DNA of 64,000 nucleotides from Escherichia coli (lineage in GTDB: Bacteria > Pseudomonadota > Gammaproteobacteria > Enterobacterales > Enterobacteriaceae). Below are positions 37,500 through 58,721 of the stretch, one piece after another. Positions within the stretch are counted from its first letter, which is position 1. Each line of letters opens with the position of its first letter. The notes under the pieces are model-generated. The model had not been told where the DNA came from. It worked only from the letters and a program-made list of their open reading frames with translations, and did no database searches. A program made the position numbers and the translations under genes. The stretch is from the NCBI RefSeq assembly GCF_003019035.1, contig NZ_CP027447.1; one strand, written 5' to 3'.

Positions 37500-37880
37500 T
37501 CAGGCAACCTGTACCGGAATCGCTTTCGCGGTACGTTTCATTTCATTGTCGCCTTCAAAATAGGCGACGTTGGGCCGCCAGGTGCGAGCTTCTTCATCTG
37601 GCATGGTAACGAAGCTGGCGATGATGATAATATCGCCGACGCTGGCGCAGTGGGCCGCCGCACCGTTAACAGAAATAATTCTCGAACCGCGTTCTGCCGC
37701 GATGGCATAAGTGGAGAAACGCTTGCCGTTGGTGACATTCCAGATATCAATGGCTTCGTTTTCGAGAATACCAGCTGCGTCAAGAAAATCCTGGTCAATG
37801 GCGCAAGAACCTTCATAGTGCAGGTCCGCATGAGTCACTTTCACGCGGTGGAGTTTGCCCTGCAGCATCGTGCGAATCAT
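37500..37880 (-). CDS. panD: Aspartate 1-decarboxylase proenzyme
   Basis: 126-aa ORF; self-processing site ...EGS-CAID; stop lies 3 nt from yadE stop. Confidence 0.96.
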
Positions 37881-38153: not shown

Positions 38154-39086
38154 ATGGATGCACCGAGTACCACACCGCATGATGCGGTATTTAAACAATT
38201 TTTAATGCATGCGGAAACGGCTCGCGACTTTCTGGATATTCATTTGCCAGCGGAGCTACGCGAACTGTGTGACCTCGACACGCTGCATCTTGAGTCGGGG
38301 AGTTTTATTGAGGAAAGCCTGAAAGGACACAGCACGGACGTACTCTATTCCGTGCAAATGCAGGGCAATCCCGGTTATTTGCATGTGGTGATTGAACATC
38401 AAAGCAAGCCGGATAAGAAAATGACCTTTCGCATGATGCGCTATGCCATTGCCGCCATGCACCGGCATCTGGAGGCGGATCACGATAAGCTGCCGCTGGT
38501 GGTGCCGATTCTGTTTTATCAGGGCGAGGCCACACCTTATCCGCTCTCAATGTGCTGGTTTGATATGTTTTACTCGCCGGAGCTGGCGCGACGCGTTTAC
38601 AACAACCCTTTCCCGCTGGTGGATATCACCATCACACCGGATGACGAAATCATGCAACATCGGCGGATTGCGATTCTCGAACTACTGCAAAAACATATTC
38701 GCCAGCGCGACTTAATGTTATTGCTGGAGCAACTGGTCACGCTGATTGACGAAGGGTACACTAGCGGAAGTCAGTTAGTTGCCATGCAAAACTATATGCT
38801 GCAACGCGGTCATACTGAACAAGCGGATTTGTTTTATGGTGTGCTGAGAGACAGGGAAACGGGAGGGGAGTCTATGATGACGCTGGCGCAGTGGTTTGAA
38901 GAGAGGGGAAGACAGGAGGAAAGGCAGGAGGTAAGACAGGAGGTAAGACAGGAGGTAATACAAGAGGTTAGACAGGAAGTAAGACAGGAATTCGCCCTGC
39001 GTTTTCTGAGTAAAGGGATGTCTCGGGAAGACGTTGCAGAGATGGCAAATTTACCTCTTGCTGAGGTTGATAAGCTGATTAGCTAA
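38154..39086 (+). CDS. rpnC: Recombination-promoting nuclease RpnC (YadD; PD-(D/E)XK, transposase_31 / YhgA-like family)
   Basis: 310-aa ORF; N-terminal nuclease region with candidate catalytic D62, E81, Q83 (TDVLYSV...VIEHQSK); C-terminal tail with (R/I)QEV repeats. Confidence 0.9.
   Translation: MDAPSTTPHDAVFKQFLMHAETARDFLDIHLPAELRELCDLDTLHLESGSFIEESLKGHSTDVLYSVQMQGNPGYLHVVIEHQSKPDKKMTFRMMRYAIAAMHRHLEADHDKLPLVVPILFYQGEATPYPLSMCWFDMFYSPELARRVYNNPFPLVDITITPDDEIMQHRRIAILELLQKHIRQRDLMLLLEQLVTLIDEGYTSGSQLVAMQNYMLQRGHTEQADLFYGVLRDRETGGESMMTLAQWFEERGRQEERQEVRQEVRQEVIQEVRQEVRQEFALRFLSKGMSREDVAEMANLPLAEVDKLIS
38874..39086 (+). CDS. Putative intragenic small protein (RpnS-like antitoxin) from internal in-frame start within rpnC
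   Basis: Strong internal SD gggaggggag 4-13 nt upstream of in-frame ATGATG at 38874; would yield a 70-aa protein equal to the RpnC C-terminal tail. Confidence 0.5.
   Translation: MMTLAQWFEERGRQEERQEVRQEVRQEVIQEVRQEVRQEFALRFLSKGMSREDVAEMANLPLAEVDKLIS
38910..38990 (+). repeat. 12-nt tandem codon repeat (AGACAGGAGGTA-like, about 7 units) in rpnC tail
   Basis: AGACAGGAGGAA AGGCAGGAGGTA AGACAGGAGGTA AGACAGGAGGTA ATACAAGAGGTT AGACAGGAAGTA AGACAGGAA read directly; encodes RQEE/RQEV repeats. Confidence 0.9.
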
Positions 39087-39154
39087 GTTATCTGCATTAT
39101 CAGTTATAGCCAGATAATTGTTATTGTTAACTGACCAGATAATCAAGGGAACAT

Positions 39155-39388
39155 ATGGAAATAAAGACACGGAGAGAAACCAGGCAGACGTTAGCGCAGT
39201 GGTTTGAAGAGAAGGGATTTCAGAAGGCGTATCAGGAGGCGTTTCAGAAGGGATATCAAGAGGAACTCCAGAAGGTAAGACAGGAATTCGCCCAGCGTTT
39301 TCTAAGTAAAGGGATGTCTCGGGAAGACGTTGCAGAGGTGACAACTTTACCTCTTACAGAGATTGATAAGCTAATTAACTCTAACTAA
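39155..39388 (+). CDS. Stand-alone Rpn C-terminal tail-domain paralog (77 aa), putative RpnS-like protein or tail cassette
   Basis: RBS aaggga 6 nt upstream of ATG; product MEIKTRRETRQTLAQWFEE...EFAQRFLSKGMSREDVAEVTTLPLTEIDKLINSN parallels the RpnC tail TLAQWFEE...EFALRFLSKGMSREDVAEMANLPLAEVDKLIS; about 90% nucleotide identity over 39275-39382 versus 38979-39086. Confidence 0.6.
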   Translation: MEIKTRRETRQTLAQWFEEKGFQKAYQEAFQKGYQEELQKVRQEFAQRFLSKGMSREDVAEVTTLPLTEIDKLINSN

Positions 39389-39483
39389 ATTGCCAGCGAT
39401 ATGAATAATCACTTACAGACGTCATCGCCATGACGTAGGGCAAATGAATAACTGGCGCCATTAGCCGTAGCGCCAGTTAAGTA

Positions 39484-40335
39484 TTACGCCAGCTCGACCA
39501 TTTTGTTGTCGATCAGGCGAGCATCGCCAAGCCAGGCGGCTACCAGAATCACCGCTCGTTTGCTGTTTTCAGAGATTTCCAGCAAGGTGTCGGCATCGCG
39601 AATCTGAATATCATCGGAACGGAAACCTTTTTCATTCAGTTCTTGCCCGGCAATAGCAATAATTTCATCGAGATCCCGTTCGCCAGCCTGCAATTTGTCG
39701 GCAATTGAACTTAAGACTTTGTAGAGACCCGGCGCAATTTTACGTTGTTCCGCCGTCAGATAGCCGTTACGGGAACTGAGCGCCAGACCGTCTTTCGCGC
39801 GCATAATCGGCACTCCGACAATCTCAATATCGAAGCCCATATCGGCAACCATTTTGCGGATCAGTGCCAGTTGCTGAAAATCCTTTTCACCGAAGCAGGC
39901 GATGTCCGGCTGGACCAGGTTGAACAGTTTGCTGACAATAGTCGAAACGCCGCGAAAATGTCCCGGACGGCTGGCACCTTCCAGCATGGTGGAAAGACCA
40001 GGAACATCAACATAGGTGTGGGTTTCAGTACCGTTCGGGTAGATCTCTTTTACCGAAGGCGCGAAAACTAAATCCACTTTACGTTTGTTCAGCTTTTCGC
40101 AGTCCTCTTGCAAGGTCCGTGGATAACGTGCCAGATCTTCCGGGCGGTCAAACTGCATTGGGTTAACGAAAATACTGACGACGACCACATCGGCGCGGGC
40201 TTTGGCTTCGTCGACCAGCTTCATATGGCCGTCGTGCAGGTTACCCATGGTGGGCACCAGCGCCACGCGCTTACCTTCCATACGCAGGCGGCGGATTTGC
40301 TGACGCAGCAGCGGCAGGGTTTCGATAATTAACAC
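39484..40335 (-). CDS. panC: Pantothenate synthetase
   Basis: 283-aa ORF; HIGH-like motif [10 protein letters not shown]. Confidence 0.96.
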
Positions 40336-56186: not shown

Positions 56187-58721
56187 ATGGCCGGGAATGA
56201 CCGCGAGCCAATTGGACGCAAAGGGAAACCGACGCGTCCGGTCAAACAAAAGGTAAGCCGTCGTCGTTACGAAGATGACGATGATTACGACGATTATGAT
56301 GACTATGAGGATGAAGAACCGATGCCGCGCAAAGGTAAGGGCAAAGGCAAAGGGCGTAAGCCTCGTGGCAAACGCGGCTGGCTATGGCTGCTGCTAAAAC
56401 TGGCTATCGTTTTTGCCGTGCTGATCGCCATTTACGGCGTTTATCTCGATCAAAAAATTCGCAGCCGTATTGATGGCAAGGTCTGGCAATTGCCCGCGGC
56501 AGTTTATGGTCGAATGGTCAACCTTGAGCCAGACATGACCATCAGCAAGAACGAGATGGTGAAGCTGCTGGAGGCGACCCAGTATCGCCAGGTGTCGAAA
56601 ATGACCCGTCCTGGTGAGTTTACCGTACAGGCCAACAGCATTGAGATGATCCGCCGTCCGTTTGATTTCCCGGACAGCAAAGAAGGGCAGGTGCGCGCGC
56701 GTCTGACCTTTGATGGCGATCATCTGGCGACGATCGTCAATATGGAGAACAACCGTCAGTTCGGTTTCTTCCGTCTTGATCCGCGCCTGATCACTATGAT
56801 CTCTTCACCAAACGGTGAGCAGCGTCTGTTTGTGCCGCGCAGTGGTTTCCCGGATTTGCTGGTGGATACTTTGCTGGCGACAGAAGACCGTCATTTCTAC
56901 GAGCATGATGGGATCAGTCTCTACTCAATCGGACGTGCGGTGCTGGCAAACCTGACTGCCGGACGCACGGTGCAGGGGGCGAGTACGCTGACGCAACAGT
57001 TGGTTAAAAACCTGTTCCTCTCCAGCGAGCGTTCTTACTGGCGTAAAGCGAACGAAGCCTACATGGCGCTGATCATGGACGCGCGTTACAGCAAAGACCG
57101 TATTCTTGAGCTGTATATGAACGAGGTGTATCTCGGTCAGAGCGGCGACAACGAAATCCGCGGCTTCCCGCTGGCGAGCTTGTATTACTTTGGTCGCCCG
57201 GTAGAAGAATTGAGCCTCGATCAGCAGGCGCTGTTGGTGGGTATGGTGAAAGGGGCGTCCATCTACAACCCGTGGCGTAACCCGAAACTGGCGCTGGAGC
57301 GACGTAACCTGGTACTGCGTCTGCTGCAACAGCAACAGATTATTGATCAAGAACTCTATGACATGTTGAGTGCACGTCCGCTGGGTGTTCAGCCGCGCGG
57401 TGGGGTGATCTCTCCTCAGCCAGCCTTTATGCAACTGGTGCGTCAGGAGCTGCAGGCGAAATTAGGCGATAAGGTAAAAGATCTCTCCGGCGTGAAGATC
57501 TTCACTACCTTTGACTCGGTGGCCCAGGACGCGGCAGAAAAAGCCGCCGTGGAAGGCATTCCGGCACTGAAAAAACAGCGTAAGTTGAGCGATCTTGAAA
57601 CCGCGATTGTGGTTGTTGACCGCTTTAGCGGTGAAGTTCGTGCGATGGTCGGTGGTTCTGAGCCGCAGTTTGCGGGCTACAACCGTGCGATGCAGGCGCG
57701 TCGTTCGATTGGTTCCCTTGCAAAACCAGCGACTTATCTGACTGCCTTAAGCCAGCCGAAAATCTATCGTTTGAATACGTGGATTGCCGATGCGCCAATC
57801 GCGCTGCGTCAGCCGAATGGCCAGGTCTGGTCACCGCAGAACGATGACCGTCGTTATAGCGAAAGTGGCAGAGTGATGCTGGTGGATGCGTTGACCCGTT
57901 CGATGAACGTGCCGACGGTGAATCTGGGGATGGCGCTGGGGCTGCCTGCGGTTACGGAGACCTGGATTAAACTGGGCGTACCGAAAGATCAGCTGCATCC
58001 GGTTCCGGCGATGCTGCTGGGGGCGTTGAACTTAACGCCAATCGAAGTGGCGCAGGCATTCCAGACTATCGCCAGCGGCGGTAACCGTGCACCGCTTTCT
58101 GCGCTGCGTTCGGTAATTGCGGAAGATGGCAAAGTGCTGTATCAGAGCTTCCCGCAGGCGGAACGCGCGGTTCCGGCGCAGGCGGCGTATCTGACACTAT
58201 GGACCATGCAGCAGGTGGTACAACGTGGTACGGGGCGTCAGCTTGGGGCGAAATACCCGAACCTGCATCTGGCAGGGAAAACAGGAACTACCAACAATAA
58301 CGTAGATACCTGGTTTGCGGGCATTGACGGCAGCACGGTGACCATCACCTGGGTAGGCCGTGATAACAACCAACCGACCAAACTGTATGGAGCCAGCGGG
58401 GCAATGTCGATTTATCAGCGTTATCTGGCTAACCAGACGCCAACACCGCTGAATCTTGTTCCGCCGGAAGATATTGCAGATATGGGCGTGGACTACGACG
58501 GCAACTTTGTTTGCAGCGGTGGTATGCGTGTCTTGCCGGTCTGGACCAGCGATCCGCAATCGCTGTGCCAGCAGAGTGAGATGCAGCAGCAGCCGTCAGG
58601 CAATCCGTTTGATCAGTCTTCTCAGCCGCAGCAACAGCCGCAACAGCAACCTGCTCAGCAAGAGCAGAAAGACAGCGACGGTGTAGCCGGTTGGATCAAG
58701 GATATGTTTGGTAGTAATTAA
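56187..58721 (+). CDS. mrcB: Penicillin-binding protein 1B (bifunctional glycosyltransferase/transpeptidase)
   Basis: Start at [18 protein letters not shown]; 844 aa; acidic [15 protein letters not shown] tract, TM segment, Gln/Pro-rich C-terminus. Confidence 0.96.

Follow-up and report, generated by a model that had tools for sequence, protein, structure and literature searches.

The toxin-antitoxin systems of Rpn genes are built as a gene within a gene (Zhong, Storz et al., PNAS 2023; PMC10400941). The C-terminal domain of the full-length nuclease, RpnL, is also translated separately from an internal start, and the resulting small protein, RpnS, blocks RpnL (PMC10400941). What the authors describe as "four amino acid / dodecamer repeats" sit in helix 1 of this C-terminal domain, 8–20 residues after the RpnS start (PMC10400941). 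The crystal structure of RpnA_S (PDB 7TH0) is a dimeric three-helix bundle, with the repeat insertion point in helix 1 at the dimer interface (PMC10400941).

For rpnC of Escherichia coli K-12, internal initiation was detected by Onc112/retapamulin profiling and SPA tagging, and neutralization of the long protein by RpnC_S was followed with a dinD-lacZ assay (PMC10400941). Neutralization was lost when one repeat was added to either RpnC_S or RpnC_LS and regained when both carried it. In this assay, which used K-12 RpnC with an added KGIE unit, the toxin was blocked only by an antitoxin whose repeat number equaled its own (PMC10400941). Similar repeat variation recurs in the Rpn tails of distant phyla, and some strains carry a further gene, rpnC_Ss, downstream of rpnC and derived from rpnC itself (PMC10400941). 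Anti-phage activity has been demonstrated for RpnP2, which is plasmid-borne, and not for RpnC (PMC10400941). Here we describe an rpnC locus with an expanded repeat tract, found in a stretch of 64,000 nucleotides of an E. coli genome (hereafter the window, to which all coordinates refer), and compare it with the published system.

The rpnC locus and its dodecamer tract

The full-length rpnC gene (yadD) occupies 38154–39086 on the plus strand as a 933-bp open reading frame of 310 codons for amino acids. It encodes RpnC_L, the toxin, a PD-(D/E)XK-type recombination-promoting nuclease of the Rpn family. Residues 7–207 match Pfam PF04754 (Transposase_31/YhgA-like) with an E value of 9e-87, and the protein scores 272 bits against NCBIfam TIGR01784, for which the cutoff is 52. 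By both models, RpnC_L has the N-terminal PD-(D/E)XK-type domain that marks the Rpn (YhgA-like) family. PADLOC had no model matching RpnC.

Two minus-strand genes, panD (37500–37880) and panC (39484–40335), flank rpnC. Orthology with K-12 rpnC is supported by this setting, as the K-12 strain DH1 also has rpnC and then panC; over the N-terminal 717 nt, identity to K-12 is 95%. Annotations of homologous loci in the panD–panC interval name the gene rpnC or Rpn family. All three genes are annotated in the order panD-rpnC-panC in E. coli SCU-301, an isolate from the human rectum; its rpnC (annotated Rpn family) and rpnC–panC spacer are 100% identical to 38154–39483 of the window. A minus-strand open reading frame at 38775–38963 was dismissed as an artefact that mirrors the repeat.

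Like other RpnL/RpnS pairs, rpnC contains an internal start, in frame and preceded by a ribosome-binding site, ahead of the C-terminal domain. A Shine-Dalgarno core, GGAGG (38862–38866, plus strand), is separated by 7 nt from the in-frame ATG that follows it at 38874, and this core is invariant in all 21 of the alleles checked. The ATG at 38874 is probably the published rpnC_S start. From it, a gene within the gene runs in frame to 39086 on the plus strand and would encode the 70-aa RpnC_S, whose function as an antitoxin we take from PMC10400941. The protein begins with MMTLAQWFEERG, continues through the repeats and ends with ...LSKGMSREDVAEMANLPLAEVDKLIS; C-terminal positions 218–273 of TIGR01784 match it. 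A sigma-70 consensus scan inside rpnC gave no plus-strand promoter for the published short transcript, and we treated the scan as uninformative.

The repeat tract spans 38910–38993 on the plus strand and is common to RpnC_L and RpnC_S. It consists of seven 12-nt units, in order AGACAGGAGGAA, AGGCAGGAGGTA, AGACAGGAGGTA, AGACAGGAGGTA, ATACAAGAGGTT, AGACAGGAAGTA and AGACAGGAATTC, which read in the frame of the gene as RQEE RQEV RQEV RQEV IQEV RQEV RQEF. A preliminary description of this DNA had reported about seven consecutive 12-nt units in the tail, or antitoxin part, of the gene. Tandem Repeats Finder (TRF) and the reading frame confirm the units, and the tract indeed falls within rpnC_S. TRF places the repeat at 38909–38989 (6.8 copies, 85% matches, 0 indels, score 120), and this is one of only five distinct arrays scoring at least 50 in the 64-kb window. 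The best 70-nt segment of the open reading frame has 60 period-12 self-matches; 2000 codon shuffles gave 28 on average and never more than 38. A signal so far above the shuffle maximum confirms the repeat.

The units fit, approximately, the Rpn rule of one hydrophobic residue and three that are charged or glycine: in RQEV, V is hydrophobic, R and E are charged, and Q is polar. The two identical AGACAGGAGGTA units at 38934–38957 (plus strand) probably mark the place where units are gained and lost: among natural alleles that match at 100% elsewhere, this exact unit is present in one, two or three copies. No perfect tandem in the window allele extends beyond ~34 nt.

The first repeat unit begins at residue 13 of RpnC_S, 12 residues after the start and within the published range of 8–20 (PMC10400941). 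Although the tract had been described as a linker, the RpnA_S crystal structure and AlphaFold models of PMC10400941 put the repeats inside the long first helix, at the dimer interface. Our own AlphaFold2 model of RpnC_S, built on a shallow alignment of 16 sequences, has a mean pLDDT of 66.6. Residues 23–46 are helical in this model, and residues 13–26, which are the first repeat units, fall below 50 and are not helix. A Foldseek search of the model against the PDB gave no match with E <0.6; its top hits were helix-turn-helix fragments of ~33 residues, which we did not use as evidence. A PDB sequence search with RpnC_S returned insignificant matches only and did not retrieve RpnA_S (7TH0). Because the model is weak and the PDB searches were null, the helix placement of the repeat rests on the published work.

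Downstream of rpnC, at 39155–39388 on the plus strand, is a stand-alone second copy of the tail, rpnC_Ss, annotated as a coding sequence of 77 aa (WP_096986651.1) and homologous to the RpnC tail. It has its own 12/24-nt repeat at 39210–39263 on the plus strand (TRF periods 12 and 24), reading FQKA YQEA FQKG YQEE and onward. This repeat also varies between strains, with variable segments of 14–26 aa. At all 11 loci compared, the length of rpnC_Ss differs from that of the in-gene tail, and at two loci (L014 and L015), a deletion has fused rpnC_Ss to the main gene. Approximately 1843 of 5426 genomes cover at least 80% of a query made of rpnC and rpnC_Ss. As a separate observation, PADLOC returned a weak RmrA match for rpnC_Ss (E 7e-5).

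Unit number across E. coli and how it changes

To count units at this locus across E. coli genomes, a check named in the preliminary description, we read 25 alleles from complete genomes, the window included, bounding the tract by LAQWFEE(K/R)G and (A/V)(L/Q)R. The number is variable: 2, 3, 4, 5, 6, 7, 8 and 9 units were all seen, which is the between-strain copy-number variation that characterizes the hypervariable Rpn repeats. The corresponding gene lengths are 873, 885, 897, 909, 921, 933, 945 and 957 bp, with a second series offset by 6 bp through a longer C-terminus. We also drew a rank-stratified sample of 60 of the 5423 matching genomes, in which rows that were not fetched were assigned by span length and by statistics identical to those of a fetched row. 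Four units were most common (~37 of the 60 rows), followed by six (7), seven (5), three (4), eight (4), two (2) and nine (1). At 99% identity or more, 337 genomes, ST131 included, have exactly the same 7-unit tail as the window.

Two families of units have expanded independently. One is the RQEV type (AGACAGGAGGTA, or AGACAAGAGGTA in other lineages) and the other the IEKG type (ATTGAGAAGGGA), so that different lineages have multiplied AGACAGGAGGTA, AGACAAGAGGTA or ATTGAGAAGGGA. The K-12 (DH1) gene, at 903 bp, has four units, IEKG IQQG RQEV SQEF. Relative to the window it has three fewer units (−36 bp) and two more C-terminal codons (+6 bp; ...KVINLI compared with ...KLIS), and these two changes account for the difference between 903 and 933 bp. 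The earlier reading of this difference as copy-number variation is therefore right about the lengths and about K-12 having fewer units, but 30 bp is not a whole number of units. Over the N-terminal 717 nt, the window and the ST131 allele differ at 15 sites, all synonymous, and share the same protein accession.

Close relatives show how the number changes. ATCC 25922/Seattle 1946 has nine units and SSGw1, derived from Nissle 1917, has eight; apart from this one 12-nt unit, a single SNP separates them over the 40 kb centered on rpnC. The extra unit of ATCC 25922 sits within a run of identical ATTGAGAAGGGA units. For the window allele, we predicted the products of a one-unit slip in the pair at 38934–38957 and searched for them as queries of 225 or 249 nt. 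Each query had full-length matches at 100% identity, and at a threshold of 99% identity the +1 allele was present in 13 genomes and the −1 allele in 63. Reading three loci (L025, L026 and L027) confirmed them. A further candidate for a pair differing by a unit only, the alleles of ZH063/KE50 (6 units) and ST131 (7 units), was ruled out, as 20 substitutions and a 6-nt indel also separate them.

The tract thus gains or loses single units, and its changes can locally outpace point mutation. Since the changes occurred in situ, one unit at a time and within identical runs, slippage-type events are favored over import, and units are most likely gained and lost by replication slippage or unequal exchange. 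The slippage-like variation proposed earlier agrees with this pattern of stepwise gain and loss of whole units, both between ATCC 25922 and SSGw1 and in the +1 and −1 alleles. A literature search for later papers on the mechanism of repeat expansion found none in the library covered.

Readings of the tract

We consider it very probable that the tract corresponds to the dodecamer repeat already described for the Rpn C-terminal domain, here in an rpnC allele of the SCU-301/ST131 type, and that it serves as a helix-length specificity code whose units change by slippage-type events. That repeat number is polymorphic, and that this has a functional consequence, have both been published before (PMC10400941). 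From the sequence, we infer that separate translation, antitoxin activity and same-number specificity hold for the RQEV-type allele of the window as well. One piece of DNA would then be read twice in the same frame, as the tail of RpnC_L and as most of the first helix of RpnC_S, the latter starting at the internal ATG at 38874. Each unit would lengthen this helix by four residues. Four residues of a standard α-helix correspond to ~6 Å and to ~40 degrees of twist. Because the helix is the presumed interface that pairs the small protein with the toxin tail, unit number would act as a specificity code in which only partners of the same number neutralize. Units would be gained or lost singly within runs of identical units, by slippage or unequal exchange. 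Because toxin and antitoxin share their DNA, any such event would alter both together and the pair would stay matched.

On this interpretation the feature is a rediscovery: the length-variable specificity helix of a gene-within-gene toxin-antitoxin system proposed for phage defense. The value that remains is small, in that the in situ one-unit changes bear on the expansion mechanism that was left open in PMC10400941.

The same shared coding can be read in another way. If any slip is compensated because toxin and antitoxin use the same DNA, unit number would be free to wander, and the length variation could be neutral drift without phage or other selection. Sequence and published work agree that the pair stays matched after a slip (PMC10400941). 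The spread of two to nine units is wide and unstructured, with several independent expansions, and the evidence for phage defense comes from RpnP2 and not from RpnC itself (PMC10400941). Against this, the tail varies beside an N-terminal domain under purifying selection, where 15 of the 15 differences between the window and ST131 are synonymous. The recurrence of repeat variation in the Rpn tails of distant phyla (PMC10400941) suggests more than accident. A second tail copy of differing length has also been kept, so length likely matters for cross-talk, though none of these points proves positive selection. On balance, we regard drift as unlikely.

The preliminary description had called the repeat contingency-like. 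Taken in full, this would make the tract a true contingency locus, hypermutable, switching length at high frequency and heterogeneous at any time within a clonal population. Unit number does vary between strains, the 9- and 8-unit ST73 strains differ by a single SNP in 40 kb, and exact +1 and −1 neighbors of the window allele exist. However, contingency loci switch genes on and off by shifting the frame or the promoter spacing, and here the units are 12 nt and in frame, so that every allele read keeps its frame and no such switching results. The perfect tandem in the window allele is short (~34 nt), and an identical 7-unit tail is common to 337 genomes, including ST131. Nine units are present in all the listed assemblies of ATCC 25922/Seattle 1946 and its laboratory derivatives, and eight in all those of Nissle 1917, CFT073 and ABU 83972, laboratory-evolved lines included. 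These assemblies show no change within a strain, with the proviso that they are consensus sequences, which would hide any rare minority variants. Because the strains checked show a constant count across their listed assemblies, the term is only partly apt, and we think a true contingency locus quite improbable here.

A more ambitious proposal would treat the repeat and rpnC_Ss together as a self-diversifying module, in which RpnC_L, through its nuclease and recombination-promoting activity, makes its own gene gain and lose units and swap tails. If it were true, a defense gene would be actively making new toxin and antitoxin specificities. Self-diversification by Rpn was raised as speculation by Zhong et al. 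(PMC10400941). Mosaic alleles, fusion alleles, the exact +1 and −1 neighbors and the unmatched length of rpnC_Ss are all compatible with it but do not test it, and we hold it to be very improbable.

Finally, the tract might act in translation, its AGGAGG motifs pairing with the anti-Shine-Dalgarno sequence of 16S rRNA so that pausing or internal starts tune the output of RpnC_L and RpnC_S. Four exact AGGAGG motifs do lie 12 nt apart at 38914–38955 (starting at 38914, 38926, 38938 and 38950), and they are four of only 11 such sites in the 64-kb window, counting both strands. Such a cluster is unusual, since coding regions tend to be poor in Shine-Dalgarno-like motifs (PMC5100845). However, the exact hexamer is present in units 1–4 only, and not in each unit as first reported; units 5–7 carry AAGAGG, AGGAAG and AGGAAT instead. 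ATG, GTG and TTG are absent from every frame in 38905–39000, so no AGGAGG there is followed at 4–12 nt by a start codon or can serve a canonical start. The spurious internal initiation suggested earlier is thus not supported, and the probable true start, the ATG at 38874, lies upstream.

Nor are the motifs conserved. Alleles have between zero and four AGGAGG, with none in the IEKG type, K-12, ATCC 25922 and Nissle included. Two 8-unit alleles (L003 and L010) encode the same RQEV peptide through CAA-GAG and retain a single AGGAGG, which speaks against a selected Shine-Dalgarno-like function. As the same peptide written with CAA-GAG has only one such hexamer, AGGAGG follows from CAG-GAG-G codons and unit duplication, and the motifs look like a by-product of codon choice. 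Elongation pausing at Shine-Dalgarno-like sequences is itself disputed as an artefact of footprint size (Mohammad et al. 2016, as cited in a passage of PMC5100845; PMC6377232). Slow decoding in the tract would also be confounded by rare codons: 7 of its 28 codons are AGA, AGG or ATA, each of which occurs at no more than 3.4 per 1000 codons in the long open reading frames of the window. The AGGAGG load of RQEV-type alleles may alter the RpnL:RpnS ratio, but a translational role for the repeat is hardly credible, and dropping it avoids a fruitless follow-up by ribosome profiling.

Comparison with known systems

The rpnC tract resembles several described systems to different degrees. It shares with the contingency loci of Haemophilus and Neisseria an intragenic tandem repeat, slippage-like change in copy number and differences between close relatives. 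Those loci use units of 1–7 nt and high-frequency shifts of frame or promoter, whereas the rpnC tract is in frame, has few identical units and is constant within the listed assemblies of the strains checked. The displaced ("orphan") toxin-tip/immunity cassettes of rhs and cdi loci are alike in layout, with a diverged copy of the C-terminal module just downstream that can be fused by deletion, as at L014 and L015. This is a resemblance of layout only, with no homology, and rpnC_Ss derives from rpnC (PMC10400941).

A closer functional parallel, drawn in PMC10400941, is the HsdS subunit of EcoR124I and EcoR124II (TAEL twice and three times, respectively), in which an in-frame 12-nt/4-aa repeat in a helical spacer also alters specificity through its length. 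Helix length in EcoR124I/II sets the spacer of the DNA target (N6 or N7), whereas that of RpnC would set the pairing of toxin tail and antitoxin, and the proteins are not homologous.

The match is to the RpnC_L/RpnC_S system of E. coli itself (PMC10400941), with which the window shares the gene, the panD-panC locus, the context of the internal start, the helix 1 repeats, the variation between strains and rpnC_Ss. The alleles differ: the published experiments used the 4-unit K-12 allele with an added KGIE unit, whereas the window carries an RQEV-expanded 7-unit allele, as in ST131.

Mosaic structure of the rpnC locus

Judged by sequence comparison, the rpnC locus (38154-39483) is a mosaic. Over its N-terminal 717 nt, rpnC is nearest to two homologous loci from other genomes, L014 and L015 (E. 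coli E21 and PEC011), with 3 mismatches; its tail matches the ST131 tail at 100% identity. In the N-terminal part, rpnC differs from the ST131 gene at 15 sites; because both genes carry the same protein accession, WP_000339917.1, all of these differences are synonymous. Across the 1330-nt stretch comprising rpnC and its stand-alone tail copy, rpnC_Ss, only SCU-301 reaches at least 99% identity.

Repeat length in rpnC_Ss and same-number neutralization

The tail copy rpnC_Ss (39155-39388) contains its own 4-aa repeat tract at 39210-39263, in which the window strain has an extra 24-nt duplication (FQKA YQEA). This brings its variable segment to 26 aa; in 10 other strains the segment measures 14-20 aa. 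The corresponding RpnC segment spans 10-38 aa, and the two proteins have segments of unequal length in every locus that contains both genes (11/11). For K-12 RpnC, only an antitoxin with an equal repeat number blocked the toxin in the published assay (PMC10400941). If this rule holds, the downstream RpnC_Ss may fail to neutralize the neighboring RpnC.

Other repeats in the window

A 62-aa minus-strand ORF with LLSY repeats (38775-38963) is the reverse-complement image of the rpnC repeat; we regard it as a mechanical artifact of that repeat and rejected it as a gene candidate. Elsewhere, a tandem repeat with a period of 303 (2.8 copies, 17175-18037) probably corresponds to the lipoyl domains of aceF, and one with a period of 96 (3.6 copies, 20866-21213) probably lies in yacH. 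We guessed these two gene names from the aceF-lpdA-yacH order annotated in another homologous locus, L021. The third has a period of 18 (2.7 copies, 56267-56314).

Insertions, apparent fusions and defense-model matches

Two insertion sequences lie directly after the rpnC stop codon, where rpnC_Ss or the panC-proximal spacer would be: IS1A in strain 1217KP (L013, 1169-1866) and an IS3-family element in AF14 (L024, 1228-2013). No PADLOC model matched RpnC itself. The RpnC_Ss protein (39155-39385) weakly matches RmrA (E 7.4e-5), with residues 23-75 aligned to profile positions 284-336 of 357.

In L014 and L015, rpnC (205-1095) has an Ss-type tail ending in ...ATLSLTEVDKLINSN, and no separate rpnC_Ss gene occurs 3' of it. 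From their sequences, these alleles appear to stem from a 296-nt deletion that left the rpnC_Ss tail fused to the N-terminal domain; events of this kind are mentioned in PMC10400941.
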